This document shows positions 1,018 to 13,670 of a stretch of 64,000 nucleotides of DNA, one piece after another. Made by a program: the position numbers and the translations under genes. The notes beneath the pieces are model-generated. The model worked only from the letters and a program-made list of their open reading frames with translations, had not been told where the DNA came from and made no database searches. This DNA is from an uncultured Eubacteriales bacterium (GTDB taxonomy: Bacteria; Actinomycetota; Coriobacteriia; Anaerosomatales; PHET01). Position 1 is the stretch's first letter. Each line of letters starts with the position of its first letter. The stretch spans positions 70,188 through 134,187 of the forward strand of contig CAZBLH010000001.1 of NCBI GenBank assembly GCA_964492775.1, written 5' to 3'.

Positions 1018-2180
1018 TCGAGATTGACCGCTCGAGCTGGCGACGGGTGCGGTTCGGGGACGTTGTCTCCAACAGCAAGGAGGCCGTGAAAGACCCGGCA
1101 GCCTCAGGCTTGGACCGCGTGGTCGCCCTTGAGCACATGGATCCCGGCAACCTGCAACTGTCTGGATGGCAAGATGCCGCCGACGGCACAACCTTCACCC
1201 GCTGCTTCCGTGCAGGTCAGACGCTATTTGCGAAGCGTCGGGCGTATCAACGCAAGGTGGCCTACGCCCAGTTCGACGGCGTTTGTTCGGGCGACATCCT
1301 GGCGTTTGAGGCGAGGCCGGACGAACTGCTTCCGGAGCTGCTTCCATTCATCGTGCAGTCAGATGCATTCTTTGAACATGCGCTTCGCACGTCTGCAGGT
1401 TCGCTCTCTCCGCGCACCAAGTGGCAAGACCTAGCGAGGTGGGAGTTCGATCTGCCGCCACTTGAGCAACAGCGGCCGATGGCCGAGTTGCTGTGGTCGT
1501 TCAAGCGGGCGCTCGATGCCCAGCAGTCGAGACTCGAGGCTGTAGACACGACAATTGGTCGCTTCTGCGCTGATCTCTACTCAAGGAGTTCAGGGCTTGG
1601 TCTCGATCGTCCGATGCCAGACGTTGGCGACATCCGTATGGGCCGCCAGAAGGCGCCGAAGTACATGCGGGGCGTAACACCGCGTCCCTACCTCACTGTG
1701 CTCAGTGTGGGACACCTGGAACTGGACGTCCGCGATTTGCCGCAGATGGACTTCTCCGAGTCCGAGCTCCAGATCTATCGTGTGCTACCCGGCGACATCT
1801 TGCTAACCGAGGGCGACCTGATAAGTCCGCTGAATGTTGGGCGCCCCGTTCTGGTTGCGGACGACCTCCAGGACTGCTGCTTCCAGAACACTTTGATTCG
1901 GCTGCGTCTCAAGGACGACGTTCTTCCGCTCTTTGCCCTGGGGATGCTGGAGGGGATGCGACTTGGTGGGGTGTTCGCCTCGGCGGCGAGCACGACGACT
2001 GTGACCCATCTTGGGCTCAAGCGCTTCTCAGCTCTGAGAATGCCCGTTCCTGCACTCGAGCGGCAAGCAGGTGTTGCCAAGCAATTGGAGTGTCTCCTCG
2101 AGACGCGGAGAGCGTTGCGATCGAGCAGAGTAGCTCTTGAGGCGATGGCGGCTTCGGTTCGAGAGGAACTAATCGTATGA
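1014..2180 (+). CDS. hsdS: Type I restriction-modification specificity subunit S
   Basis: It sits between M and R with 4-nt overlaps on both sides. At 388 aa it fits a two-TRD protein. Two copies of the conserved HsdS spacer motif are present (FDLPPLEQQRPMAELL and MPVPALERQAGVAKQLE). Confidence 0.8.
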   Translation: MIEIDRSSWRRVRFGDVVSNSKEAVKDPAASGLDRVVALEHMDPGNLQLSGWQDAADGTTFTRCFRAGQTLFAKRRAYQRKVAYAQFDGVCSGDILAFEARPDELLPELLPFIVQSDAFFEHALRTSAGSLSPRTKWQDLARWEFDLPPLEQQRPMAELLWSFKRALDAQQSRLEAVDTTIGRFCADLYSRSSGLGLDRPMPDVGDIRMGRQKAPKYMRGVTPRPYLTVLSVGHLELDVRDLPQMDFSESELQIYRVLPGDILLTEGDLISPLNVGRPVLVADDLQDCCFQNTLIRLRLKDDVLPLFALGMLEGMRLGGVFASAASTTTVTHLGLKRFSALRMPVPALERQAGVAKQLECLLETRRALRSSRVALEAMAASVREELIV

Positions 2181-5095
2181 CCTTCAATGAAGCCAACTCC
2201 GTACGTGACTTCGTTCGCGACCGCGCCGTTGCTACTGGTTGGACCTTCGTTGCCGGGTCTGCAACACGCGACGATGACTCAGAGAGCATCGTTGCACGCA
2301 AAGTCCTTGACGCGCTCGTGCGGCTCAATCCCGAGATTGCCGCCGACTCCGCACTCGCCGACGAGGTGCTGCAGAAGCTCCAGGCAATCGCCATATCGGC
2401 TCGTCAAAGCGGCAACCTCCTCACCGCGAACGAGGAGTACCGTGCCTGGCTCGTCGGCGATCGATCGATGCCCTTTGGCCCCGGCGGGGAGCATGTTCCG
2501 ATTCGGCTCATCGATCTCGACGACCCGTACGCGAATGACCTGGTGGTCTCCACAGAAGTCACCTTCTCGCAAGGGGCGGTTACTCGGCGCTTCGACCTGG
2601 TCTTCTGGGTGAATGGCCTGCCGCTTGTCGTCGGTGAGGCCAAGACGCCAACACGACCCGCGTACTCGTGGGTGGACGCGGCCGCGCAGGTGCATGACGA
2701 CTACGAGAAGAACGTTCCGATGTTCTTCGTGCCTAACGTGCTGTCCTTCGGAACTGACGGCAAGGACTACCGGTACGGGTCGGTCGGAATGCCCATCGAC
2801 CTGTGGGGCCCCTGGCGCGAGGCTGACTCCAACCCGGCGCCATGCCTGGAAGCGGTCGGGGCGGCAGTCGATGCGATGCTTCGCCCGGAAGTGATCCTGG
2901 ACTTCCTGCGCTTCTTCGCCGTGTTCGCCACTGACAAGAAGCACCGCAAGATCAAGGTCATCGCACGCTACCAACAGTTCCAGGCGACCAACCAGATCGT
3001 CGACCGCGTCGTGGCCGGCCGCATCAAGAAGGGTCTCATCTGGCACTTCCAGGGGTCGGGCAAGTCACTGCTCATGGTCTTCGCAGCGAACAGGCTCCGC
3101 GCTCACCCGGCGCTGAAGTCCCCGACCGTCGTCATCGTGGTTGACCGAATCGACCTCGACACGCAGATCACTGCGACCTTCAACGCGACCGACGTGCCCA
3201 ACATGGTCTCGACCGATTCGCGCGAGGAACTCCATCAGCTTCTGCGACAAGGCACTCGCAAGGTAATCATCACGACGATTCACAAGTTCGCCGAGGCGGG
3301 CGGCGTTCTCGACGATCGCGACAACATCATCGTCATGGTCGACGAGGCGCACCGCACCCAAGAGGGCGACCTCGGTCATCAGATGCGCTCAGCACTGCCC
3401 AATGCGTTCCTTTTCGGCCTGACCGGTACACCCATTAACCGGGCCGACCGCAACACGTTCTGGGCCTTCGGCGCGGAAGAGGATGCCGGTGGCTACATGT
3501 CCAAGTACTCGTTCTCGGACTCGATCCGAGACGGGGCAACCCTACCGCTCCACTTCGAGCCGAGACTCGTCGAGCTTCGAGTAGACCGTGAGGCGTTGGA
3601 CGCCGGTTTCGAGGCACTCGCGGAGGGGCTCTCGGAGACCGAGCGGGCAGTGCTCGCCAAGAAGACCGGCGAGGCGAGCCGGCTTATCAAGGCGCGAGAG
3701 CGGGTCGCCGCGGTCGCCGCGGACATCGCCGCTCACTACAAGGCGAACGTCGAGCCCAACGGCTTCAAGGCCCAAGTCGTTGTCATAGACAAGGAAGCGT
3801 GTGTCCTCTACAAGAAGGCACTCGACGAGATTCTGCTGCCGGACGAGAGCGCGATCGTCATGTCGATGGACGCGCGCGACCCCCAGGAGTGGCGTGACAA
3901 ATACGGACTCGACAAGGACGCGGAGGCGCGGCTGCTCGATCACTACCGCGACCCCAACGATCCGCTCAAGGTCCTCGTCGTCACGGCGAAGCTGCTAACC
4001 GGCTTTGACGCGCCGATTCTGCAGGCGCAGTACCTGGACCGGCCGCTGCGCGACCATAACCTGCTGCAGGCGATCTGCCGTACCAACCGCCCTGCGCCCG
4101 GCAAGCCGTACGGCCTGGTAGTTGACTACCTCGGCATCTTCGATGACGTGGCACAGGCGCTCGAGTTCGATGACGAGTCGGTCAAGCGCGTGATCACCAA
4201 CCTCAACGAGGTCAAGGCGCAGCTCCCGGCCGCGATTAAGGGAGCACTCTCGTTCTTCCCAGGCGTGGACCGGACCATTGAAGGGCATGAGGGCCTCATG
4301 GCCGCGCAGCAGTGCCTCCCTGACGTTGAGATGCGCGACAAGTTCGCTGCCGCGTATACGTTCCTCGCTCGGCTGTGGGAGGCGCTGTCACCTGACCCGG
4401 TCCTCAACGAGTACCGCGACGACTACCGCTGGCTCTCCGACGTGTACGAGTCCGTGAAGCCCTTCGACCCGGCCGGCCGCCTGGTGTGGCACCGCCTCGG
4501 CCCGAAGACGCTCGAGCTTGTCAACGAGCATGTCCACGTTGATGTAGTACGCGAAGACTTGGACACCATCGAACTTGAGGCCGAACTGCTCGAGTCACTC
4601 GGCGATCTCATCGACGAGGCGGAGGCGAAGAAGAAGGCCAAGCACCTCGACATCCTGCTCGCCGCTCGTCTGGGTCGCCACAAGAACGACCCTCGGTTTG
4701 TCGCGATTGGTGAACGACTCGAGGCGCTTCGCGACAAGTTCTCGGCGGGCCTGATGAACAGCGTTGAGTTCCTGAAGTCCTTGCTCGAACTGGCCCAAGA
4801 AACAGTCGTCATCGAGAAGACGGTCGAGGCGCTGTCGAAAGAGGAGCAGGGCAAAGCCGCACTCAGCGCCCTGTTCGAGTCGATCCAGACTGAGGAGACT
4901 CCGGTCATCGTCGCCCGTGTGGTCGAGGACATCGACACCATCGTGCGGGAGGTCCGCTTCCCGGAGTGGCAGGCCACGTCAGCCGGCGAGCGCGAGGTCA
5001 AGAAGGCGCTGCGTCAGACACTGCTCCGCTACAAGTTGCACCGCGAGCAGGAGCTGTTCGATAAGGCGTACGGCTACATCCGGGAGTACTACTAG
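2177..5095 (+). CDS. hsdR: Type I restriction endonuclease subunit R (SF2 helicase/translocase-nuclease)
   Basis: 972 aa. Walker A FQGSGKSLLMVF, DEAH box MVDEAHRTQ, LTGTPI, and motif VI QAICRTNR. ATGA overlap with hsdS. Confidence 0.9.
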   Translation: MTFNEANSVRDFVRDRAVATGWTFVAGSATRDDDSESIVARKVLDALVRLNPEIAADSALADEVLQKLQAIAISARQSGNLLTANEEYRAWLVGDRSMPFGPGGEHVPIRLIDLDDPYANDLVVSTEVTFSQGAVTRRFDLVFWVNGLPLVVGEAKTPTRPAYSWVDAAAQVHDDYEKNVPMFFVPNVLSFGTDGKDYRYGSVGMPIDLWGPWREADSNPAPCLEAVGAAVDAMLRPEVILDFLRFFAVFATDKKHRKIKVIARYQQFQATNQIVDRVVAGRIKKGLIWHFQGSGKSLLMVFAANRLRAHPALKSPTVVIVVDRIDLDTQITATFNATDVPNMVSTDSREELHQLLRQGTRKVIITTIHKFAEAGGVLDDRDNIIVMVDEAHRTQEGDLGHQMRSALPNAFLFGLTGTPINRADRNTFWAFGAEEDAGGYMSKYSFSDSIRDGATLPLHFEPRLVELRVDREALDAGFEALAEGLSETERAVLAKKTGEASRLIKARERVAAVAADIAAHYKANVEPNGFKAQVVVIDKEACVLYKKALDEILLPDESAIVMSMDARDPQEWRDKYGLDKDAEARLLDHYRDPNDPLKVLVVTAKLLTGFDAPILQAQYLDRPLRDHNLLQAICRTNRPAPGKPYGLVVDYLGIFDDVAQALEFDDESVKRVITNLNEVKAQLPAAIKGALSFFPGVDRTIEGHEGLMAAQQCLPDVEMRDKFAAAYTFLARLWEALSPDPVLNEYRDDYRWLSDVYESVKPFDPAGRLVWHRLGPKTLELVNEHVHVDVVREDLDTIELEAELLESLGDLIDEAEAKKKAKHLDILLAARLGRHKNDPRFVAIGERLEALRDKFSAGLMNSVEFLKSLLELAQETVVIEKTVEALSKEEQGKAALSALFESIQTEETPVIVARVVEDIDTIVREVRFPEWQATSAGEREVKKALRQTLLRYKLHREQELFDKAYGYIREYY

Positions 5096-5100
5096 CAACC

Positions 5101-5138
5101 ACGCACGAACGTGAGAACCGGTTTCCACGTTCGTGCGT
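5101..5138 (+). terminator. Perfect 13-bp hairpin directly after hsdR (possible terminator or attenuator, no U-tract)
   Basis: ACGCACGAACGTG (5101-5113) pairs with CACGTTCGTGCGT (5126-5138) across a 12-nt near-palindromic loop, AGAACCGGTTTC. The hairpin ends 10 nt before the ATG at 5149. Confidence 0.4.
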
Positions 5139-5148
5139 AGATAGTGGG

Positions 5149-5985
5149 ATGGGGATTGCGTTGTCCAGCAAGCCAGCAGGCATACAGTACGCCGGCGAAG
5201 CAGGCCTTACTCTATCCTGCCAAGAGGCGGTGCTCCGTCTGCTGCAGTTTGGCGACAAGATCACGCACGCTCGCATCTTGACGTGCAATGGTGGCCACGG
5301 CCTTCTGCTCACGACGGACAAGCGTGAGACCGTCGGTATCAAGGCCGGATTTGCCTCAGGATACCCCGGGGAGGGGCCGCGCCGCTTCTCCTATGTCCTG
5401 CACGTACTCTGGCATCACGAGGTGGAGATCAGCCAGGCACAAGTGAGCCAAGGGATTCTCGACAGGTTGGACGCCTCAGCTCTCACGGAGGCCGACATGG
5501 AGACCATACGCCGAGCCAAGCCGGGCGATCACTGGAAGTACTACATGCTGCCGCAGCATGTCAGCGTGAGTCCTTGGTCGGAGTTCCCGCCGGCGATTCC
5601 GTACGCCATCGTTGACGAGCGCCTGGCTGACCTTGCTCTGACCTTCTGGGAGGCCCCAGGTGACCGGCTGCTCACGGCCTGGCGGCGTCTTGAAGATGCC
5701 GTGCGGAAGCGCACTGGTCTCGAGGAACACGGAGCCAAGCTCTTCTCGCGCGCTTTCGTCGGCGACGCCGCCCTGCTGCGGTGGGCTGACAAGGGCGCCG
5801 GTGAGGCGGAGGGCGCGGCACAGCTCTTCGCAAATGGATTCAAGGCGTACCGCAACCGGCGAGCGCATCGCGAAGTGAGCGACCATCCAGAAGACCAGCT
5901 CGTCGAGTTCCTGATGCTGAACCAGCTCTTCCGGCTGGAAGGGGCCTCTGAGCTCATCGCTGAGAAGTCGCAGGCGGGTGGATAG
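5149..5985 (+). CDS. HEPN-domain protein of the TIGR02391 / Hypoth_Ymh type with an unassigned ~130-aa N-terminal domain
   Basis: The C-terminal half reads IVDERLADLALTFWEAPGDRLLTAWRRLEDAVRKRTG...LFANGFKAYRNRRAHRE. This contains the R-x4-H HEPN motif in the context typical of TIGR02391. The N-terminal part (e.g. GFASGYPGEGPRRFSYVL) matches nothing I recognise. Confidence 0.65.
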   Translation: MGIALSSKPAGIQYAGEAGLTLSCQEAVLRLLQFGDKITHARILTCNGGHGLLLTTDKRETVGIKAGFASGYPGEGPRRFSYVLHVLWHHEVEISQAQVSQGILDRLDASALTEADMETIRRAKPGDHWKYYMLPQHVSVSPWSEFPPAIPYAIVDERLADLALTFWEAPGDRLLTAWRRLEDAVRKRTGLEEHGAKLFSRAFVGDAALLRWADKGAGEAEGAAQLFANGFKAYRNRRAHREVSDHPEDQLVEFLMLNQLFRLEGASELIAEKSQAGG

Positions 5986-7002
5986 ATGCCGGAGCAGACT
6001 AATCGAGTCGTTACTGAGAATGCCGAGGAAGAACAGTGGCGCCTGCTTACAAGGCTGGCGTATCCACGGAATATCAGGGCGTATCGCGACGGCCACGCGG
6101 AGGCGCCTCTACAGGCAGAGGGCGAGGAGTACGTATCCGGGTGTCTTCACCAGGCGCAAGCGTACTTCGAGTCGGCGGCCGTCGCTCCGATCGACATCAG
6201 CCCACTGCTGCTCTACTACGGGGCCGTCAGTCTGTTCGGGGCTGCAACTGCGCTCGGTACTGGTGTTGTGCCGGCGATACAGTCGCATGGGATGCAGCTT
6301 GACCAGGTCGACGCCGCGCAACAGATTGGCCAGGTCAGCGTGAAGACCTCATCTTCGCTTTCGGGTGGTCTGGGTGCGTTCGCCAAGTACTTCGGCGATG
6401 ACTGTCGTCTTGGCGGAGTGGACACCTGGAGTCTCCAAGAACTGATGGCGTCTGTGCCAGATCTCAAACTTGATGCTCAACTCTGCTATGGAGCCGACGC
6501 GTCTTTCGTTCTTCCGGTTGAGACGGTCCGGTCTGGAGAGCGCTCCGCGGAGCGGATCGCACTCGAGGATTTTGGCGGCAGACCAGTTGATGAAGTCGTA
6601 GGAAGAATCGCCGGATTCACGAAGGCATACTTGCCGCCGCAGTTCTCGAACAAGAACGAATGGGTTGTGCTGCATCGACGGATTGGCTCCCAGCCCATAG
6701 GAATCAGGTCGCTTTCGGGGCAGCGGTATCTGCAGCTCTCACACCTAAAGGGAGGGCAGCAAGTCAGTCCGCGAATCGAGACGCTGATGTTCATGGGGCT
6801 GTTCGTGCTTGGCTCAGTTTCCCGATATCACCCAAGTCTGTGGAACCCGTTTGTCCGCAGCGATCAGACCGGAGAGTTGTTGATCGTTGAGCGGTTCCTG
6901 TCTGTGTGCCGCAGGATGCTGCCCAATCTGGTCTTGGACGCAATTCATGACGAGAGGTTCATCTTCGTTCGTCCGTCCGCGGGAGGTGAGGGTAACGACT
7001 GA
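5986..7002 (+). CDS. YaaC-like family protein (function unknown)
   Basis: The ATG at 5986 directly abuts the TAG of the previous gene (TAGATG). Signatures resemble PF14175: QAQAYFESAA, ISPLLLYYGAVSLFGAA, HGMQL, and the C-terminal SVSRYHPSLWNPFVR...ERFLSVCRRMLPNLVL. Confidence 0.55.
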   Translation: MPEQTNRVVTENAEEEQWRLLTRLAYPRNIRAYRDGHAEAPLQAEGEEYVSGCLHQAQAYFESAAVAPIDISPLLLYYGAVSLFGAATALGTGVVPAIQSHGMQLDQVDAAQQIGQVSVKTSSSLSGGLGAFAKYFGDDCRLGGVDTWSLQELMASVPDLKLDAQLCYGADASFVLPVETVRSGERSAERIALEDFGGRPVDEVVGRIAGFTKAYLPPQFSNKNEWVVLHRRIGSQPIGIRSLSGQRYLQLSHLKGGQQVSPRIETLMFMGLFVLGSVSRYHPSLWNPFVRSDQTGELLIVERFLSVCRRMLPNLVLDAIHDERFIFVRPSAGGEGND

Positions 7003-8011
7003 ACGTCTACGAGCCGTCGCGTACTCGGCGTGCAAGTTGGTCAGGGATTGGGAGGGAAGAGGCGAGTTCGGTGAAGTCATTAGGAGCCTCACAGTCTCCA
7101 CGGGTCAGCCGATGTCGCCGAATGACCGGAGTATGTTCGGCTACGTGGCCCGCCAGCAGCACGCGCAAGTGGCCGGGTATCTGGCGACCGACCAGTACCG
7201 CGACAGACTGGCAGGCCAGCCTTTTGGACCGCCACCACCACTGGTTGAGCACGAACGAAAGTTGCTTGCTGGGGTGCACGCGGAGTTCCTCCGGCTGAAC
7301 GACACATGCATCGATCGGGTATTTGCGGCGGGGCACTCCGCGAGGGCGATTCTCGACCCTTACAACTCTCTCGCACCCGTGTCGGTCGCAGAAGCGGCCC
7401 CAGTAGCGATGTTCAATGAAGAGACCGTGCACCTAGTCGCTGACGCATTCGAGCTCCATCCGGGGCTTGCAGTCGTGCGGGGGCTGAACGTACCAGACGG
7501 CGCCGAAGACGCCGAGCGGATGCTTGAGGCAACCCACGTACTCGAACGACACCTCCAGCAGGCGGGCCCGCTGGAGACTCCCGACGACATCTTCCGCGTC
7601 ATGGTCGAGCGCGATACGCCGCAGCAGCAGATGATGAAGGTGGTCGCCGCATTCATGAACCTGCGAGCGGCTTTGGGCGTGCTCGACCAGCTGGTATATC
7701 AGGCGATGCTCAGAGATAGACTGCCGGCCCTCAGTCCGGACAACACGATCGCAGTAGACAAAGCGGTGCACCACGCCGCCGGTGGCGGATGGCAGCTGCT
7801 CTGCCTTCATGACGAGGCGACGGCGCACATGGAGTGTGGTGGTCTTGCGCTGCTGTCCGGTCTGCCGGGCGTAGTGGACACGTCTCAACTGGCGTCGATA
7901 TCTCGGATTACGACGAGTATGGGAGGGGAGATCGGGCCGACCCTTGAACTAGAACTACGGGAAATCGATGAGAACCTCTCGCCATACGGAGGCCTGCTGT
8001 CTCGAGCATGA
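6986..8011 (+). CDS. Hypothetical protein, no recognisable domain (start uncertain: ORF opens at 6887, GTG at 6986, ATG at 7112)
   Basis: Long ORF in the sense direction that overlaps the stop of the YaaC-like gene. Third-position GC bias is consistent with coding, but rare codons (AGA, AGG, ATA, CTA) are used. There are no motifs I can assign. Confidence 0.5.
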   Translation: MRVTTERLRAVAYSACKLVRDWEGRGEFGEVIRSLTVSTGQPMSPNDRSMFGYVARQQHAQVAGYLATDQYRDRLAGQPFGPPPPLVEHERKLLAGVHAEFLRLNDTCIDRVFAAGHSARAILDPYNSLAPVSVAEAAPVAMFNEETVHLVADAFELHPGLAVVRGLNVPDGAEDAERMLEATHVLERHLQQAGPLETPDDIFRVMVERDTPQQQMMKVVAAFMNLRAALGVLDQLVYQAMLRDRLPALSPDNTIAVDKAVHHAAGGGWQLLCLHDEATAHMECGGLALLSGLPGVVDTSQLASISRITTSMGGEIGPTLELELREIDENLSPYGGLLSRA

Positions 8012-8065
8012 GCACGGGCGCGCGTGAGCCATCGATCTGGTCGCCGTACCGGGTTCCACACGAGT

Positions 8066-8096
8066 AGGTACGTATCCACGTATCCACGTAGTACCT
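8066..8096. promoter_or_regulatory. Operator-like element: a 6-bp inverted repeat enclosing a tandem octamer repeat
   Basis: AGGTAC (8066-8071) and GTACCT (8091-8096) flank GTATCCAC GTATCCAC GTA. It lies ~80 nt upstream of the ATG at 8176, which has a GAGGAGG RBS, in the 164-nt gap after the cassette. Confidence 0.35.
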
Positions 8097-8175
8097 GCGA
8101 CGGAGATCGGCACGAACGGCACGCATTCACCTCCTCGCGGCTACGCTGTGAGTAGTCGATTCGAGGAGGCATCTC

Positions 8176-9396
8176 ATGGCCCGCAAGCCGTTGAACCCGC
8201 GGCAGGTCGAAGTGCTGCAGTGGATTGCCGACGGATGTCCCGATCGCACATGGCCGGACTTCACGTACAAACATACCGCGGTGGCCTTGCGGGGCCGACG
8301 ACTGGCGAAGGTGTCGAAGCGCGGCGGATGGCACGCCGAGATCACCGAGGACGGACGGCACTACCTGGAGCATGGTTGCTATCCCGGGGAGCAGGCCCAT
8401 GCGGCGCACTCAGCGAAAGCGCAGCAGGCGCCCAATAAGGCGCCCAGGCAGGCGATGAAGCCCGATGCCGCCCCGAGACCCAAGAAGAAGAGCGAGCCGC
8501 CAGAGGGGCGGGAGACCGCAGCGCCACCTATCGTCGTTCCCTCGCAACTGCGCAATCCGCATCCGGCGGTTGCTGCGCTTCGCGATGACAAGGAGCACCT
8601 CGGCTTGACTGCGAGCGTGAGGGGGCGGGCGCTGCGTGTGCTGCAGGCGCTTACGACCGCAGCCGAGGAGCAAGGCTGGAGCGTGCGTGCTCCGGAAGTC
8701 CAGCGGCGAAACGAATACGGCTACTCACGTTCTGAGTCAGCGAACCACCTCATCATCGAGACTGGTGAACAGAGCGTGGGCCTTCGCATCGTCCAGCTAG
8801 CCGACCGCAGTCCCCACGTGCCGACGAAAGAAGAGCTGCGCCGGCAAGAGAGCTGGGGCAACGTACCGTCGAAGTACGATCACACGCCCAATGACTACCT
8901 GCGCATCGAACTCGAGCGTTGGGGCTGGGATGGCAAGCAGAACAACTTCAGCGAGGGCCAAAGGGGCCCGATCGATCGGAAGTTGCGCCGCGTCATCGAC
9001 GAGATTGCCCACAGAAGCGAACGGGCCAAAGAGAGGCGACTCGAGCAAGAGGTTCGCGAGGCTGAGCGTGCGCGTCAGTACGAGCAGGCGCTCCAGCGAG
9101 CGAAGCTGCTCTTGCAGCAAGACCATCGAGCGAAGGTACTGCTCGAGCAAATCAGCCGCTCGACGCAGGCTGCGCAGATACGTGAGTACGTGAAAACCAT
9201 GAGGGCGTCAGCCGACGTGCTCGAGGGCGAGGAGAAGACTGCCGCCCAGGAGTGGATCGACTGGGCCGTCCGCTACGCCGACGTGATCGACCCGCTCAGG
9301 CGAGAGCTCAGGATGCCCGAGGACCCCGAGCCGACGGAGGAGGCGCTTCGACCCTTCATGGGCGGCTGGAATGCGTACGGCCCGCGAGGTTGGTAG
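8176..9396 (+). CDS. Hypothetical protein: possible N-terminal wHTH, a Pro/Ala/Lys-rich linker, a central globular region and a C-terminal coiled coil
   Basis: The N-terminus reads RQVEVLQWIADGCPD...HTAVALRGRRLAKVSKRGGWHAEITEDGRHYLEHG. The linker is QAPNKAPRQAMKPDAAPRPKKKSEPPEG. A heptad-like charged stretch follows: RSERAKERRLEQEVREAERARQYEQALQRAKLLLQQDHRAKVLLEQI. Good RBS. I recognise no family. Confidence 0.55.
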   Translation: MARKPLNPRQVEVLQWIADGCPDRTWPDFTYKHTAVALRGRRLAKVSKRGGWHAEITEDGRHYLEHGCYPGEQAHAAHSAKAQQAPNKAPRQAMKPDAAPRPKKKSEPPEGRETAAPPIVVPSQLRNPHPAVAALRDDKEHLGLTASVRGRALRVLQALTTAAEEQGWSVRAPEVQRRNEYGYSRSESANHLIIETGEQSVGLRIVQLADRSPHVPTKEELRRQESWGNVPSKYDHTPNDYLRIELERWGWDGKQNNFSEGQRGPIDRKLRRVIDEIAHRSERAKERRLEQEVREAERARQYEQALQRAKLLLQQDHRAKVLLEQISRSTQAAQIREYVKTMRASADVLEGEEKTAAQEWIDWAVRYADVIDPLRRELRMPEDPEPTEEALRPFMGGWNAYGPRGW

Positions 9397-9528
9397 TCTG
9401 TAGGCGTCTCTAGTCGCCGTGTAGACGTGTTCAGTGCAGCATTCTCGTACGCGGCGTCGCCGGAGCGATGAAGTGTTCAGCAACTGGCTTAACTTGAGCT
9501 GGTCACTCGATTTAGGGACGTAGAAGCC

Positions 9529-11358
9529 TTGCACATTACTAAGCTCCGCATTCGCAATTTCCGCTCACTGCACGATCTGACGCTTGCCATGTCGCCGTTC
9601 ACCGTTCTGTGCGGGCCCAATAGCGCCGGTAAGTCGAACGTGCTCAGGGCGATCGAGTTCGCGTGGCGACCGGAGGACGAGATCACGCCACAGCAGGTCT
9701 ACGCCAACCTTGACTACCGGAAGCGTGATCAGCGAGGCGGCCCTACCTTGGCGATTCGCGTGGAGATTGACTTCGCCTCTTGCCCCACTGAGCTCTGCTC
9801 CCAGTACGGCGGAGTTGATGGGTCTTTGAAGTATGAGTTCAGCGCTACGCGCAAGACCGCGACCGTGAACCGAAAATTCAACGGACACCCCGTCGATCAG
9901 CCTTCGTTCGAGCGTGCGAAAGAGTGCTTTGACATCGTCTATGTGCCGCCAATACGAGACATTTCCGCGGAGGGGCTGAAACCGTTTAGGCGGCTGTTGG
10001 CAAAGGCCGCCGCCAGGGCGCGCGGAGACCACTCTATGCGGCGTGTTGCAGAGACCGCCAGGAAAGTGATTCGGCAGCAAGCGGAAGTACTCCTCAAGAA
10101 CGGGGGCTTCGCGGCAGACCGTCTTGGCGCTGACGGACTACGTGCCGGAACCGACCGAATCGAACTCGACAACCTATTCGATGATCTGTCGCTTGAAGTC
10201 ATGTTCGGGGATCGCAGCGTTGAGCTGGAGGCCGTCGGAACGGGGCACCAGAGCGAAGTCGTGCTCAGCATGTATCGGCAGCTTGGAGAGGCAGCGCCTG
10301 GAGACACTGTCTACCTGTTCGAGGAGCCAGATAACCACCTTCATCCGAGTCTGATACGCGCGGTGGCTGATGACCTCATTCGGCTCTCGAGGAGCGATCA
10401 GGTCATCGCAACCTCACATTCTCCGGTTCTCTTGAATCACGTCGGGTATGGCTCGATACGGGCGTTGAAGACCAATGCCGAGCGAGAGACAGAGCCGCGC
10501 AATATGCAGGTGGCGCTGAGTGAGCCCCAGGTGCGTGCCCTGATGGCCACGCTTGGGGTCCGCGCCACCGAGCCGCTGCTTTCGCAGAAGGTAATTGTGG
10601 TCGAAGGGCCTTCCGATGCGGTGGCGATCAGTGAGCTGCACCGCCTGCGAACCGGAAGAACCCCAGACCAGTGCGACATTCTCGTGATGCCGGCGGGTGG
10701 CAAGGACATGCTGGTTAAGTTGTGCTCGCTGTTGCAGGGGCTCGACGTCGACTGGTACGCAGTGGTGGACAACGATGCCGCGGACTGCGGATATCCACCG
10801 GTGTTGACTGAAGCAGCCGCAACTCTCGACGAAGCTACACGAGGAAGCCTCGCCTCGCTACGCGCAGTCATCGACGACGGCACCAGGCGGGCACGAAGAG
10901 CGGGCAAATTGATCGACTCCCTTATTGACGAGCTCAACGGCGCACCGCCTTCAGTTGTTCGCTACGACGGCTCGCACATCGAAAGTCTCGTTACGGTAGC
11001 GGGGATCCTTATGCCCGCCGAACGAAACCAGCTGGCGACAAGACTGAAAAAGGGCGAACTCCGTCTTCCCCGGACGTTACTCAAGAAATCTCGTGTCTTT
11101 CTCTGTGAATCCACTCTGGAGGAATCCTTGGTCCGTAATCCGGGTGCCGTTAACGTTGTCGAGGCTGTCTTGCTGAAGCACCAGCAACAGCCAATCGGTG
11201 GCAACGATGCGGAATCAAGGAGACGTCTAGCGAGCCAGCGCCTGCATACGAAGGCGGGCGAGCCGGAAGTAGTGCGCCAGGCCGTTGAGGCGCTGGAAGA
11301 GGCGGGCCTGCTTGGCTACACCGACTTGAACTTGAGCTTCAAGTACCTGTTCGAATAG
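9529..11358 (+). CDS. OLD-family nuclease (ABC-type ATPase domain fused to a C-terminal Toprim domain)
   Basis: TTG start. Walker A LCGPNSAGKSNVLRAIEF, Walker B VYLFEEPDNHLHPSL, H-loop VIATSHSPVLL. Toprim glutamate in KVIVVEGPSDAVAISEL, then ILVMPAGGKD, and DxD in YAVVDNDAAD. 609 aa, the size of class 1/2 OLD proteins. Confidence 0.8.
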   Translation: MHITKLRIRNFRSLHDLTLAMSPFTVLCGPNSAGKSNVLRAIEFAWRPEDEITPQQVYANLDYRKRDQRGGPTLAIRVEIDFASCPTELCSQYGGVDGSLKYEFSATRKTATVNRKFNGHPVDQPSFERAKECFDIVYVPPIRDISAEGLKPFRRLLAKAAARARGDHSMRRVAETARKVIRQQAEVLLKNGGFAADRLGADGLRAGTDRIELDNLFDDLSLEVMFGDRSVELEAVGTGHQSEVVLSMYRQLGEAAPGDTVYLFEEPDNHLHPSLIRAVADDLIRLSRSDQVIATSHSPVLLNHVGYGSIRALKTNAERETEPRNMQVALSEPQVRALMATLGVRATEPLLSQKVIVVEGPSDAVAISELHRLRTGRTPDQCDILVMPAGGKDMLVKLCSLLQGLDVDWYAVVDNDAADCGYPPVLTEAAATLDEATRGSLASLRAVIDDGTRRARRAGKLIDSLIDELNGAPPSVVRYDGSHIESLVTVAGILMPAERNQLATRLKKGELRLPRTLLKKSRVFLCESTLEESLVRNPGAVNVVEAVLLKHQQQPIGGNDAESRRRLASQRLHTKAGEPEVVRQAVEALEEAGLLGYTDLNLSFKYLFE

Positions 11359-11411
11359 ACCAGAGCCACTATCGAAAGGTCGGCTCAGCGGACGTGAATC
11401 CGTACCGATGT

Positions 11412-11479
11412 AATCCCCCTCGAAAACCGTTTACCGGGCAACCCCCGGTACGAGGGTTCGAATCCCTCCCTCTCCGCCA
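11412..11479 (+). pseudogene. 3' half of a tRNA-Ser(CGA) (anticodon loop to CCA) with no 5' acceptor strand; putative att site or island boundary
   Basis: Anticodon loop CTCGAAA, a long 6-bp variable arm (ACCGGG/CCCGGT), T-arm GAGGG-TTCGAAT-CCCTC, acceptor 3' strand CCTCTCC, then G and CCA. The required GGAGAGG 5' strand is absent within 130 nt upstream. Confidence 0.6.
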
Positions 11480-11490
11480 GAAGGACATGA

Positions 11491-11528
11491 AGAGAGCCCG
11501 TCACTGGTGTGGCGGGCTCTCTGTTTCT
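11491..11528. terminator. Rho-independent-type terminator shared by the tRNA fragment / OLD gene (+) and the MFS gene (-)
   Basis: AGAGAGCCCG (11491-11500) pairs with CGGGCTCTCT (11513-11522), followed by GTTTCT. Confidence 0.6.
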
Positions 11529-11544
11529 ACTCATGCTGGTGCGA

Positions 11545-12879
11545 TCAGGCTTCGCTTGTCGCTGCCTCACCATCGACTGCCGCTTCTGCTGACGGCGCCA
11601 TCGCTGAGTCCAGTGCCCGTATCGCAGGCACAAGGAGGGCCACGACGGCGCACGCAACGAGAAGGACGCCTGTCAGCGCAAACCACGTCGCGACACCCGT
11701 GCGCTCAGCAAGGGGGCCCGCCAACAGGAGCCCGATCGGTGCGACAAGCATCGACAAGGTCATGTAGAGCGACATTACGCGCCCGAGCTTAGCCGGGTCG
11801 ATCAGCGTCTGGAACATCGCGGTGATCGGGGCACCGAACAAAGGCGCCGAGAATCCCATCCCTGTGCTGAGCGCTGCGAACGCCCAGAACGCCGTGACGG
11901 GAAGCAGGCCGGACAACCCGACCATCACGCCTATCAGCAGGAGCCCGGAGCTGATGAGCCGGACGCCGGAAGTCCGCGAGGATAGCCATCCGATAGCGAG
12001 GGATCCGGCGAGCATGCCTGCGCCGAATGCCAGCTCGACAACGCTGGCCTGCAGCGCTCCACCGCCGAAGTGCGCTTTCGTCATGAGAGGGAAGAGCGCG
12101 TTGATCGGCATGTAGAGCAGAGTGACGACCACGAGCACGAAGGTAAGGTCGAGCAGCCCGCGGTTCCTCGCGAGCTCACGCCAACCAGTCATGAACTCGG
12201 CGACGAGGCTGGATCCGGCAGGGTCGTTCTCTGCGCGCTCGGGATTGGGGATGCGCACGAGCATCAGCAGTGCGACGGCAATGAGGGCGCCGGCTATGTC
12301 GAGCGCGATGACGGTCTGCATCGGTGCGACTCCCATGAGAAATGCACCGAGCACGGGAGCCACCATCGCCACGCCGGAACCCAGGAAGAAGTTCCAGCCT
12401 GCGACCCGCATGAGCTGGTCGGCTGGGACGTACATGGGGACTGCGGCTTGGCTGGCCGGAGTATGGAACGCAGCGCCCACCGACCGCGCGGCGATGACCG
12501 CGATGATGAAGGCGACCGACGGCTCGCCAGCCGCGAAGGCGCCGATCAGGACCATGCTCGTTGCGGCTACGAAGAGGTCGGCGCCGATGATCGTCCATCG
12601 GCGATCCCAGCGGTCGACCAAGGGGCCGGCGATGGGACCCAGGAGCGCTTGCGGCAGCAGTGCCGCGATCGAGGCGTACGCGAGGATGGTCGCCGAGCCC
12701 GTCTCGGCCGTCAGCCACCAGACGAGGGCGAAGTTGATTGCGGAGCTGCCGAGCAGCGAGAATGCCTGGCCGATGAACACGATAAGGAACGTTCGAAGCC
12801 AAGGGTGAGTCTTCAGAGTCACTGGATCTCCAGTCTGCAGGTACGAGTAGGCGGGCCCCCGTAGGGGCATGTGCGCCAC
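11545..12879 (-). CDS. MFS transporter (MFS_3 / enterobactin-exporter-like efflux family)
   Basis: 444 aa and polytopic. It has WLRTFLIVFIGQAFSLLGS and GPLVDRWDRR motifs. It is a paralogue of 38239-39591. Confidence 0.8.
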   Translation of the reverse strand: MAHMPLRGPAYSYLQTGDPVTLKTHPWLRTFLIVFIGQAFSLLGSSAINFALVWWLTAETGSATILAYASIAALLPQALLGPIAGPLVDRWDRRWTIIGADLFVAATSMVLIGAFAAGEPSVAFIIAVIAARSVGAAFHTPASQAAVPMYVPADQLMRVAGWNFFLGSGVAMVAPVLGAFLMGVAPMQTVIALDIAGALIAVALLMLVRIPNPERAENDPAGSSLVAEFMTGWRELARNRGLLDLTFVLVVVTLLYMPINALFPLMTKAHFGGGALQASVVELAFGAGMLAGSLAIGWLSSRTSGVRLISSGLLLIGVMVGLSGLLPVTAFWAFAALSTGMGFSAPLFGAPITAMFQTLIDPAKLGRVMSLYMTLSMLVAPIGLLLAGPLAERTGVATWFALTGVLLVACAVVALLVPAIRALDSAMAPSAEAAVDGEAATSEA

Positions 12880-13010
12880 GGCCTCGCGATGCGAGGCGGG
12901 CTGCTCGTACTAGCGGATCCGGATGTAGAAGCGCACGGTATGTACTCCTGAGAGCGGCGACGAGGGAATGATAGCATCCGCCGGGCCAACTCCAGGGTGG
13001 CCAGAGCAGC

Positions 13011-13078
13011 AATCCGCCTCGAAAACCGTTTGTCCGGTTACCCCGGGCACGAGGGTTCGAATCCCTCCCCCTCCGCCA
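13011..13078 (+). pseudogene. Second, diverged 3' half of a tRNA-Ser(CGA); also lacks a 5' acceptor strand
   Basis: Same 68-nt layout as 11412-11479, about 59/68 identical by hand alignment. The variable-arm stem is kept through compensatory changes (GTCCGG/CCGGGC versus ACCGGG/CCCGGT). The acceptor 3' strand is CCCCTCC, and no GGAGGGG is found upstream. Confidence 0.6.
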
Positions 13079-13091
13079 GTTAGCTGGAAAG

Positions 13092-13139
13092 ACGTGGCCC
13101 CGGTCACCCGAACGGGAGGCCGGGGCCACGTTCGTGTTT
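13092..13139 (+). terminator. Strong hairpin terminator after the second tRNA fragment
   Basis: ACGTGGCCCCGG (13092-13103) pairs perfectly with CCGGGGCCACGT (13120-13131), followed by TCGTGTTTG. Confidence 0.6.
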
Positions 13140-13343
13140 GGCGGACAGCAGTCGCTCTGCGTGCCGCGCCGCGATCAGCCTCGCCGGACTCGGCACCCGA
13201 AATCGTCTTCATCAGCGCCGCACCGGTCTCCCCCAGTGAGTGAGTTGACAAACACTACGTGCCGCGATATAACGTAAACCGATATAGCGCGAAGCGGTGT
13301 AACGCCGCGCGAGCATCGGAAGACAGGACGGAGGCGAGGGCGC

Positions 13344-13670
13344 GTGGAAGAGAACGGACGTCCGCTAACCGAGACCGTGTACTACGTTCTGCTTTCGCTC
13401 GTGGACCAGCGGCACGGCTACGGGATCATGCAGTTCGTCCGGGACATGACCGATGGCCGGGTTGTTCTCGGCGCTGGAACGCTGTACGGAGCGCTCTCCA
13501 CCCTGCAGGGCAAGGGTTGGATCGAGCCAGCGGGGGCTGACACGGGTGATCGGAAGAAGGAGTACAGGATCACGTCTCAGGGGCGCGATGTGCTCGCATC
13601 TGAGCTCAGTCGGCTCGAGCGCCTCGTCGGCGATGGCCGAGCGATGCTGGGGAAGGAGGCTGCATCATGA
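13344..13670 (+). CDS. PadR-family transcriptional regulator
   Basis: YYVLLSLVDQRHGYGIMQFV...GTLYGALSTLQGKGWIE...KKEYRITSQGRDVL. 108 aa. Confidence 0.85.
   Translation: MEENGRPLTETVYYVLLSLVDQRHGYGIMQFVRDMTDGRVVLGAGTLYGALSTLQGKGWIEPAGADTGDRKKEYRITSQGRDVLASELSRLERLVGDGRAMLGKEAAS

Follow-up and report, generated by a model that had tools for sequence, protein, structure and literature searches.

The first 11.5 kb of a 64,000-nucleotide (nt) stretch of DNA from an uncultured Eubacteriales bacterium (contig CAZBLH010000001.1; the whole stretch, with a G+C content of about 64%, is hereafter called the window) is occupied by a defence island on the + strand, in which a gene for an OLD-family nuclease lies behind a gene for a 406-amino-acid (aa) protein. 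The locus raises the question of whether these two genes make up a new, two-gene OLD system or are merely neighbours, two alternatives that the initial annotation had left side by side. We consider it likely that they are two independent units juxtaposed by cassette exchange rather than a dedicated two-gene system. As judged from the comparison of related islands, the OLD gene is an exchangeable cargo of the second of two slots (slot 2), and the 406-aa gene is the conserved anchor gene of a defence hotspot. The two open reading frames (ORFs) are separated by a gap of 132 nt:

8176-9396, + strand, 406-aa gene, ATG start
9529-11358, + strand, OLD gene, 609 aa, TTG start

The product of gene 9529-11358 is predicted to be a full OLD-family ATPase-Toprim nuclease. 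It was matched by the Pfam models AAA_15 (3.9e-25), AAA_21 (5.1e-19) and PF20469 OLD-like_TOPRIM (2.4e-12, spanning residues 350-416). The hallmarks ascribed to it beforehand (Walker A and B, H-loop and the E...DxD of Toprim) were all present: Walker A GPNSAGKS (residues 29-36), Walker B LFEEPD (263-268) and H-loop TSHSP (295-299) in the ATPase part, and VEGPSD (358-363), AGGKD (389-393) and DNDA (414-417) in the Toprim part. These motifs align residue for residue with those of the Thermus scotoductus OLD (TsOLD, 6p74), the Toprim motifs pairing with VEGYGD, CGGK and DEDV of that enzyme. The top PADLOC model was 'Old' (1.9e-38, 130.7 bits), while GajA models matched at 1e-28 or weaker (best, 95.4 bits) and AriA models matched the ATPase part and nothing else. 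The nearest solved relative was likewise the class 1 enzyme TsOLD (2e-19, 72.7 bits), compared with 1.6e-7 and 33 bits for GajA chains.

The partners that define the multi-gene OLD classes were searched for and, in accordance with what had been noted from the letters, none was found nearby. Gabija (class 2) was rejected because the adjacent UvrD/PcrA/Rep-like helicase GajB is lacking, no UvrD domain being detected with Pfam or PADLOC in any ORF from position 1 to 16.5 kb, and because the 'Old' model outscores all GajA models. A retron (class 3) was rejected because no reverse transcriptase (RT) domain was found with the domain libraries in the neighbouring genes and no msr-msd non-coding RNA was detected, an Rfam scan of 4900-13400 at E<=1 giving tRNA-Ser-derived matches only. 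PARIS (class 4) has its ATPase and Toprim on separate proteins, whereas here both are fused in one 609-aa protein, and no DUF4435 or separate Toprim (AriB) ORF was found near the OLD gene. A helicase, RT or AriB gene hidden just beyond the called genes was also looked for and is not present; what follows downstream is a tRNA fragment and an opposite-strand MFS transporter gene. Under the context-based definitions of the OLD classes (PMC10568477, PMC12392090), and since no neighbour is shared among its relatives (see below), the OLD is assigned to class 1, the single-gene class, an assignment that the bit scores also support as far as sequence goes.

The fit to a characterised stand-alone class is nevertheless partial. 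On the one hand, the protein is closest to a solved class 1 enzyme and no conserved partner was found in six genomic contexts; the class 1 members P2 Old, TsOLD, Vc OLD and YbjD likewise lack a conserved partner gene, TsOLD being the nearest solved structure. On the other hand, it shares only about 25-30% similarity with TsOLD where the two align, is longer (609 vs 528 aa) and carries a C-terminal extension of about 190 aa past the DxD motif. Moreover, class 1 OLD genes were described in a 2023 review as not proximal to other defence genes (PMC10568477), unlike the OLD of the window, which lies inside a defence island. Lone OLD genes defend by themselves, according to studies of Vc OLD and YbjD. 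Judging from P2 Old, Ts OLD and Vc OLD, the protein would act alone, its ABC-type ATPase, probably dimeric, controlling a two-metal Toprim nuclease that would nick or degrade replicating phage DNA.

In order to evaluate the pair, homologues of the 406-aa protein were collected from a protein database (72 matches, all annotated as 'hypothetical'), from 23 loci of species genomes, located with peptide patterns derived from 12 closer homologues, and from 33 metagenome loci, and the contigs of eight chosen homologues were also fetched; ten loci retrieved through an exact protein likewise contain a 406-aa homologue. The DNA downstream was examined by tblastn with three diverse OLD and two GajA queries. 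Counts are given for approximately 31 non-redundant loci with a full-length 406-aa homologue and at least 1.5 kb of downstream sequence; individual loci are designated by L and a number. An OLD gene directly 3' of the 406-aa homologue was found in two of these (the window and L034). The conserved synteny between both genes that had been set beforehand as the test of a two-gene system is therefore absent, and the closest relatives of the 406-aa protein, with 73%, 67% and 57% identity, are followed by other cargo. All-against-all clustering of the neighbouring proteins gave no recurrent partner, the only families that recur being HsdR, HsdM and a ThiF-type E1, all located farther upstream.

A neighbour-joining tree of the 406-aa proteins placed the window as sister to L024, which carries small genes, and L025, which carries a UvrD gene, while L034, with its OLD, was sister to L035, again with a UvrD. 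The OLDs of the window and L034 are 80% identical, compared with 54% for their 406-aa proteins, and the UvrDs of L025 and L035 are 88.6% identical although the accompanying 406-aa genes belong to different clades. This discordance between the tree and the identity of the cargo indicates that the cargo moves between islands independently of the 406-aa gene. Taken with the low count of OLD genes downstream, it argues against the proposal that the coiled-coil protein is the sensor or regulator of a two-gene OLD system. The other alternative offered at the outset, that of a class 1 OLD standing alone beside an unrelated gene, is supported.

The same result was obtained when the comparison started from the OLD. 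The OLD of L028 is 81% identical to that of the window and 86% identical to that of L034, yet no 406-aa gene was found on its 12-kb contig, nor within 6 kb on either side of the OLD, which is preceded by a Helicase_C gene and followed by AbiEi/AbiEii. Among more distant relatives, one with 52% identity (P0075 contig, whose neighbours were compared by Pfam annotation only) is flanked by a methyltransferase operon and an HD protein, another with 40% identity overlaps the end of an MmeI-like gene, and a third with 37% identity, in Massilia, lies near a complete Gabija system that has its own GajA. Directly upstream of the OLD, L028 and L031 carry genes that bear no relation to one another. Altogether, no common neighbour was detected in the six contexts of the OLD clade (window, L034, L028, P0075 contig, L029/L030 and L031), and the 406-aa gene adjoins the OLD in two of the six.

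DNA comparison between the window and the other loci showed that short non-coding junction elements are far more conserved than the genes that surround them. The elements delimiting the slots, together with other regulatory or structural features of the region, are as follows:

5101-5138, P1, near-perfect palindrome of 38 bp that follows hsdR and forms the left edge of slot 1
8046-8093, + strand, P2 element preceding the 406-aa gene, with ACGTATCC in tandem (x2) at 8070-8085
8117-8130, + strand, 14-bp inverted repeat CGGYACGSATTCAC, left copy, some 50 nt before the start of the 406-aa gene
8130-8169, + strand, hairpin in the 5' untranslated region (5'UTR) of the 406-aa gene, CCTCCTCG paired with the Shine-Dalgarno (SD) sequence CGAGGAGG
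9424-9434 and 9470-9480, + strand, direct repeat GA[CA]GTGTTCAG (x2, 46 nt spacing) in the spacer before the OLD gene
11394-11407, - strand, 14-bp inverted repeat CGGYACGSATTCAC, right copy, adjoining the tRNA-Ser fragment and forming the right edge of slot 2
11419-11479, + strand, tRNA-Ser(CGA) 3' fragment, from the anticodon loop to CCA, aligned with the intact tRNA-Ser of L035, island boundary
11491-11522, + strand, strong terminator hairpin after the tRNA fragment (-28.9 kcal/mol, z -6.5)

When the window was compared with L024, L002, L001 and L032, homology ended at the stop codon of the 406-aa gene and restarted at 11393-11394. This break and restart define the second cargo slot, whose left edge is the 406-aa stop codon and whose right edge is the inverted-repeat copy adjoining the tRNA-Ser(CGA) 3' fragment. 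In related islands slot 2 holds GajA, UvrD together with a 224-aa gene, AbiD, RosmerTA-like genes or unknown genes. Locus by locus, the cargo downstream of the 406-aa homologue, where it is not an OLD, was as follows:

L027, GajA (PADLOC, 3e-160)
L025 and L035, UvrD helicase, with an additional 224-aa gene in L035; the L025 contig stops inside UvrD
L002, AbiD (9e-74)
L001 and L004, RosmerTA-type RmrA (1e-111 in L004), with an additional 220-aa gene in L004
L006, an Mrr-like gene
L003, L024 and L032, unknown genes

In sister islands the slot receives a true GajA (L027) and UvrD genes (L025, L035), and GajA shares the two-domain OLD architecture; unlike Gabija, however, the OLD of the window has no adjacent UvrD/GajB, and the GajA of L027 is only about 22% identical to it. 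Exchange as such is seen by comparison of the islands, and it would run by homologous recombination between the conserved flanks.

Between islands, P1 and P2 share 90-100% identity, compared with 31-73% for the proteins encoded there. P1 was found directly after the restriction-modification (RM) operon in the window, L001, L002, L024, L027, L032 and L035, its copies being 92-100% identical although the HsdR proteins are just 31-35% identical. It folds as RNA into a strong hairpin without a T-run (-25.5 kcal/mol, z -5.0), and a role as terminator, protein-binding site or recombination site is possible. Copies of P1 outside the window are located as follows:

L001, 3399-3439
L002, 4125-4164
L024, 2826-2866
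L027, 4019-4058
L028, 5841-5879
L032, 452-492
L035, 239-272

P2 is conserved upstream of the 406-aa homologues in L001, L002, L032 and L034, and its tandem ACGTATCC confirmed the operator-like repeat that had been noticed ahead of the pair. The motif CACGTN5CGTAG is common to P2 and the right arm of P1. In L028, P1 stands directly upstream of the OLD gene and P2 between the OLD and AbiEi, which indicates that the same OLD cassette can occupy slot 1. As regards the 14-bp repeat, CGGYACGSATTCAC occurs exactly twice in the 64 kb (0.18 occurrences expected), and inverted repeats bracket the 406-aa gene and its cargo in five loci (window, L001, L002, L024 and L034); in the distant loci L003, L004, L006, L037 and L038 only chance-level repeats, typical of GC-rich DNA, were found. 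The right copy of the inverted repeat in L035 lies about 770 nt before an intact tRNA-Ser.

Several observations weigh against a complete independence of the two genes. The pair does recur once, in L034, at a spacing of 104 nt compared with 132 nt in the window. Besides, OLD, GajA or UvrD-type genes account for five of approximately 11 downstream cargos in the islands of close relatives, a frequency that could hint at a preference for this class of enzyme. The cargo of every close relative runs in the same direction as the 406-aa gene and starts only 27-213 nt downstream of it; given this shared direction, the short gaps and the lack of a terminator in the window, the 406-aa gene and the OLD may be co-transcribed, perhaps with some functional coupling. 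The loci were sampled through peptide patterns of the winged helix-turn-helix (wHTH) region, which makes the sample biased, and the gene calls in them were crude. Finally, a 406-aa homologue could lie elsewhere in the genome of L028, beyond the 12-kb contig.

If the 406-aa gene is not a dedicated partner of the OLD, its own role has to be considered. An AlphaFold2 model built from 64 homologues (mean predicted local distance difference test score, pLDDT, 89.5) agreed with the architecture described in the initial annotation (wHTH, Pro/Lys linker, central domain, long coiled coil). It comprised a wHTH at residues 8-66, a disordered Pro/Lys linker at 78-98 (pLDDT below 50), an alpha/beta domain at about 130-260, and an 81-residue helix at 266-346 followed by a shorter return helix at 352-371. 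Foldseek searches of the model against PDB and BFVD recognised the wHTH alone, through weak matches of the MarR type. The central domain was modelled alone with a pLDDT of 91, and Foldseek returned no structural neighbour for it in PDB, with nothing below E = 0.39. The protein had no match in Pfam (even at E<=10), NCBIfam, PADLOC or PHROGs, and a profile search against PDB sequences was empty or gave noise. Three columns are invariant across 64 family members, none of them obviously catalytic.

Three specific identities were considered and rejected. For the central domain, a catalytic core of the PD-(D/E)xK or RNase H-like type is not supported, since the candidate acidic residues vary across the 64-member alignment and no fold match was obtained. 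BrxR/CapW was discarded because, despite the wHTH, no WYL domain was found in Pfam at E<=10 and the Foldseek probability for CapW was 0.02. An AbiEi antitoxin, considered because P2 precedes AbiEi in L028, was discarded because no AbiEi Pfam match was found and BLASTP against the AbiEi of L028 gave E = 1.0.

A profile search over 1.84 billion representative proteins revealed a large family: 983 clusters were retrieved at E<=1e-30, a number that rises to 5004 at E<=1e-10, and most of the proteins are 400-500 aa long. Members from Streptomyces and Kitasatospora are monocistronic, with opposite-strand genes on both sides; the Streptomyces gene is surrounded by Abi_C, a MORC-like ATPase and a type II RM system, and the Kitasatospora gene stands beside a Wadjet operon. 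PADLOC analysis of 117 neighbours from 21 further loci gave strong matches to SIR2-pAgo, Lamassu, Shango, Tiamat, Dnd/Pbe, Ssp, GajB, BrxH and type I RM. The family is a constant resident of defence islands without a fixed partner.

The DNA around the 406-aa gene is consistent with some form of control. The 5'UTR hairpin (-24.2 kcal/mol, z -3.4), whose pairs are retained in 9-11 loci, in some of them through G-U pairs and one-sided changes, buries the SD sequence, and this arrangement suggests translational throttling of the 406-aa gene. The 132-nt spacer that leads to the OLD gene contains no terminator and folds no better than shuffled sequences (z -0.19). It is not conserved in L034 and L028, apart from the last approximately 20 nt with the SD sequence and the TTG, and its direct repeat GA[CA]GTGTTCAG is likewise not conserved upstream of the OLD in L034 or L028; the TTG start and the purine-rich SD are retained in the two nearest OLD loci. 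A scan of 7900-11700 for sigma-70-type promoters gave no sites, a result that says little for an actinobacterial-type genome.

On the basis of the architecture and the conserved upstream DNA, we tentatively regard the 406-aa protein as a dimeric DNA-binding regulator of itself and, through read-through, of its cargo, while granting this clearly less than an even chance. The protein would be a dimeric wHTH DNA-binding protein autoregulating through the conserved upstream repeat and the inverted repeat; the hairpin burying the SD sequence would throttle its translation; and, because no terminator follows the gene, its transcript may read through into any downstream cargo. Any link between the 406-aa protein and the OLD would then be generic and positional, not specific. 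Against this role it must be said that it draws on architecture and upstream DNA, and that the fold of the central domain is unrecognisable. A broader version is possible but more doubtful, namely that the family (about 1000 clusters at 50% identity, mostly actinobacterial) acts as a scaffold or regulator that recognises the P2 repeat and the 14-bp repeats, thereby marking and controlling the exchange slot. If true, the family would represent a novel counterpart of BrxR/CapW that lacks WYL and is linked to a defined site of cassette exchange.

Among the other explanations, the one that best withstands the evidence is that the 406-aa family is an autonomous single-gene defence or conflict protein, a wHTH sensor joined to an effector domain, with no functional link to its neighbours, not even a regulatory one, so that its adjacency to the OLD reflects clustering within islands. 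The monocistronic position of distant members between opposite-strand genes, the consistent presence of the family among many unrelated defence systems, a size of 400-500 aa with a conserved central domain and C-terminal motif (larger than typical regulators), and an SD-burying hairpin that fits a product to be kept low are all in line with it. However, no catalytic motif or known effector fold was found, none of the three invariant columns across 64 members is obviously catalytic, and there is no PADLOC or PHROG match, guilt by association not being function. On balance we regard this explanation as rather unlikely, though worth retaining.

A second possibility is that the 406-aa gene and its cargo form a mobile or recombination module bounded by inverted repeats, with the 406-aa protein acting on the 14-bp repeats and on P1/P2 to capture or exchange cassettes. 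The bracket in five loci, the high identity of P1 and P2 among islands with divergent proteins, their position on both sides of the OLD in L028, and near-identical cargos behind divergent 406-aa genes would fit such a module; but the 406-aa protein matched neither the fold nor the family of any recombinase, transposase or integrase, the orientation and position of the unit by the tRNA-Ser fragment are always the same, distant loci have no convincing bracket, and homologous recombination between conserved flanks suffices without a dedicated enzyme, which makes this explanation very unlikely. Least probable of all is a dedicated pair whose two genes are both required for defence, with the 406-aa protein sensing or regulating specifically for this OLD clade: the recurrence of the order in L034 with an 80% identical OLD, the co-orientation at 132 nt without an intervening terminator-like hairpin, the absence of class-defining partners and the frequency of OLD- or UvrD-type cargo in slot 2 are outweighed by the presence of an OLD in only 2 of approximately 31 loci, the closely related OLD of L028 (81-86% identity) and three further relatives without a 406-aa gene, the disagreement between tree and cargo, the different upstream spacers in the window and L034, and a family of about 1000 clusters that far exceeds the 44 matches of the OLD clade.

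The reading of two independent units joined by cassette exchange recalls defence hotspots with conserved flanks and variable cargo, as summarised in the abstracts of reports on E. coli (PMC10121019) and on the variable defence locus of Streptococcus suis (PMC5398294). As far as those abstracts and the P2 old locus allow a comparison, the likeness lies in a fixed site, here by a tRNA gene and a type I RM operon, where unrelated defence systems are swapped between flanks. The difference lies in the nature of the conserved flank, an uncharacterised gene for a wHTH protein accompanied by conserved regulatory DNA of its own, and in the delimitation of the slots by short elements (P1, P2 and the 14-bp repeat) with 90-100% conservation; no description of such elements was found among the papers surveyed, the two reports being compared at the level of their abstracts. 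The 406-aa family also resembles the BrxR/CapW-type wHTH regulators, which sit upstream of many different defence systems (PMC9122589): in both cases a protein with an N-terminal wHTH lies upstream of, and co-oriented with, diverse systems, has an operator-like repeat in its own promoter and belongs to a family widespread in defence islands. In contrast to BrxR/CapW, the 406-aa protein has no WYL or WCX domain, a novel alpha/beta domain and a long coiled coil being predicted by the model instead, and its distant members do not precede a system of the same orientation.

As regards OLD biology, the outcome is mostly negative, in the sense that the locus does not hold a fifth OLD class defined by a wHTH partner. 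What it contributes is an actinobacterial clade of class 1 OLDs that is visibly mobile between islands, consistent with recent evidence of lone OLD genes defending. The remaining interest lies mainly in the unnamed wHTH/coiled-coil family and in the junction elements of the hotspot. The former, being large and uncharacterised, with a confidently modelled but unmatched fold, can reasonably be considered a candidate for a regulator or defence gene of a new kind. The latter could help to delimit defence cassettes in Coriobacteriia-like Actinomycetota and to find new ones, such as those containing the 374-aa, 216-aa and 224-aa orphans.

The remaining genes of the island, and the first gene beyond it, are the following:

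73-1017, + strand, hsdM fragment of a type I RM operon
1014-2180, + strand, hsdS of the same operon
2177-5095, + strand, hsdR of the same operon
5149-5985, + strand, Hypoth_Ymh HEPN gene
5986-7002, + strand, YaaC-like gene
6887-8011, + strand, 374-aa orphan
11545-12879, - strand, MFS transporter gene, directly past the right end of the island

The gene order between 5149 and 11479 agrees with the earlier placement of the pair between the HEPN cassette and an island boundary marked by a tRNA fragment. Genes sampled farther to the right are of the housekeeping type (carbamoyl-phosphate synthase, transporters, CWB2 wall proteins). The tRNA fragment gave Rfam matches to a tRNA-Ser-derived model, and a second direct copy of the 3' part of tRNA-Ser(CGA), also from the anticodon loop to CCA, was found at 13018-13078, with the MFS gene between both copies; ARAGORN called no tRNA in the window, and neither fragment is functional by this criterion. 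In L035 an intact tRNA-Ser lies to the right of the module, and neither the window nor any other locus reaches the left end of the island. The island may be an element integrated into tRNA-Ser, in which case the intact tRNA would lie to the left of the window, or a hotspot of the chromosome from which the 5' half of the tRNA was lost.

Other cargo was also observed in the islands. In slot 2 of L035 (10411-12920) and L025 (9249-10211), the UvrD-type helicase matched GajB-like models at 1e-39 with no GajA present; together with the 224-aa orphan next to it in L035, it may be an undescribed helicase-based system. In L034, the sole other island with an OLD as cargo, the 406-aa homologue is immediately preceded by a gene for a 1247-aa SIR2_2 protein (5076-8819). 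A Bil-type set of ThiF (E1), Prok-E2 and ubiquitin-like genes occupies slot 1 in several sister islands, beside an HTH and Peptidase_M78 pair and a DUF8426 gene, at these coordinates:

L024, 4863-6863
L025, 5502-7672
L002, 7657-9625
L032, 5764-7761

In the window itself, slot 1 (5149-8011) holds the HEPN (Hypoth_Ymh), YaaC-like and 374-aa proteins. The last of these had no match in any library scanned, and its ORF overlaps that of YaaC by 116 nt, so that its start is uncertain. The three genes may together constitute a three-gene HEPN system.

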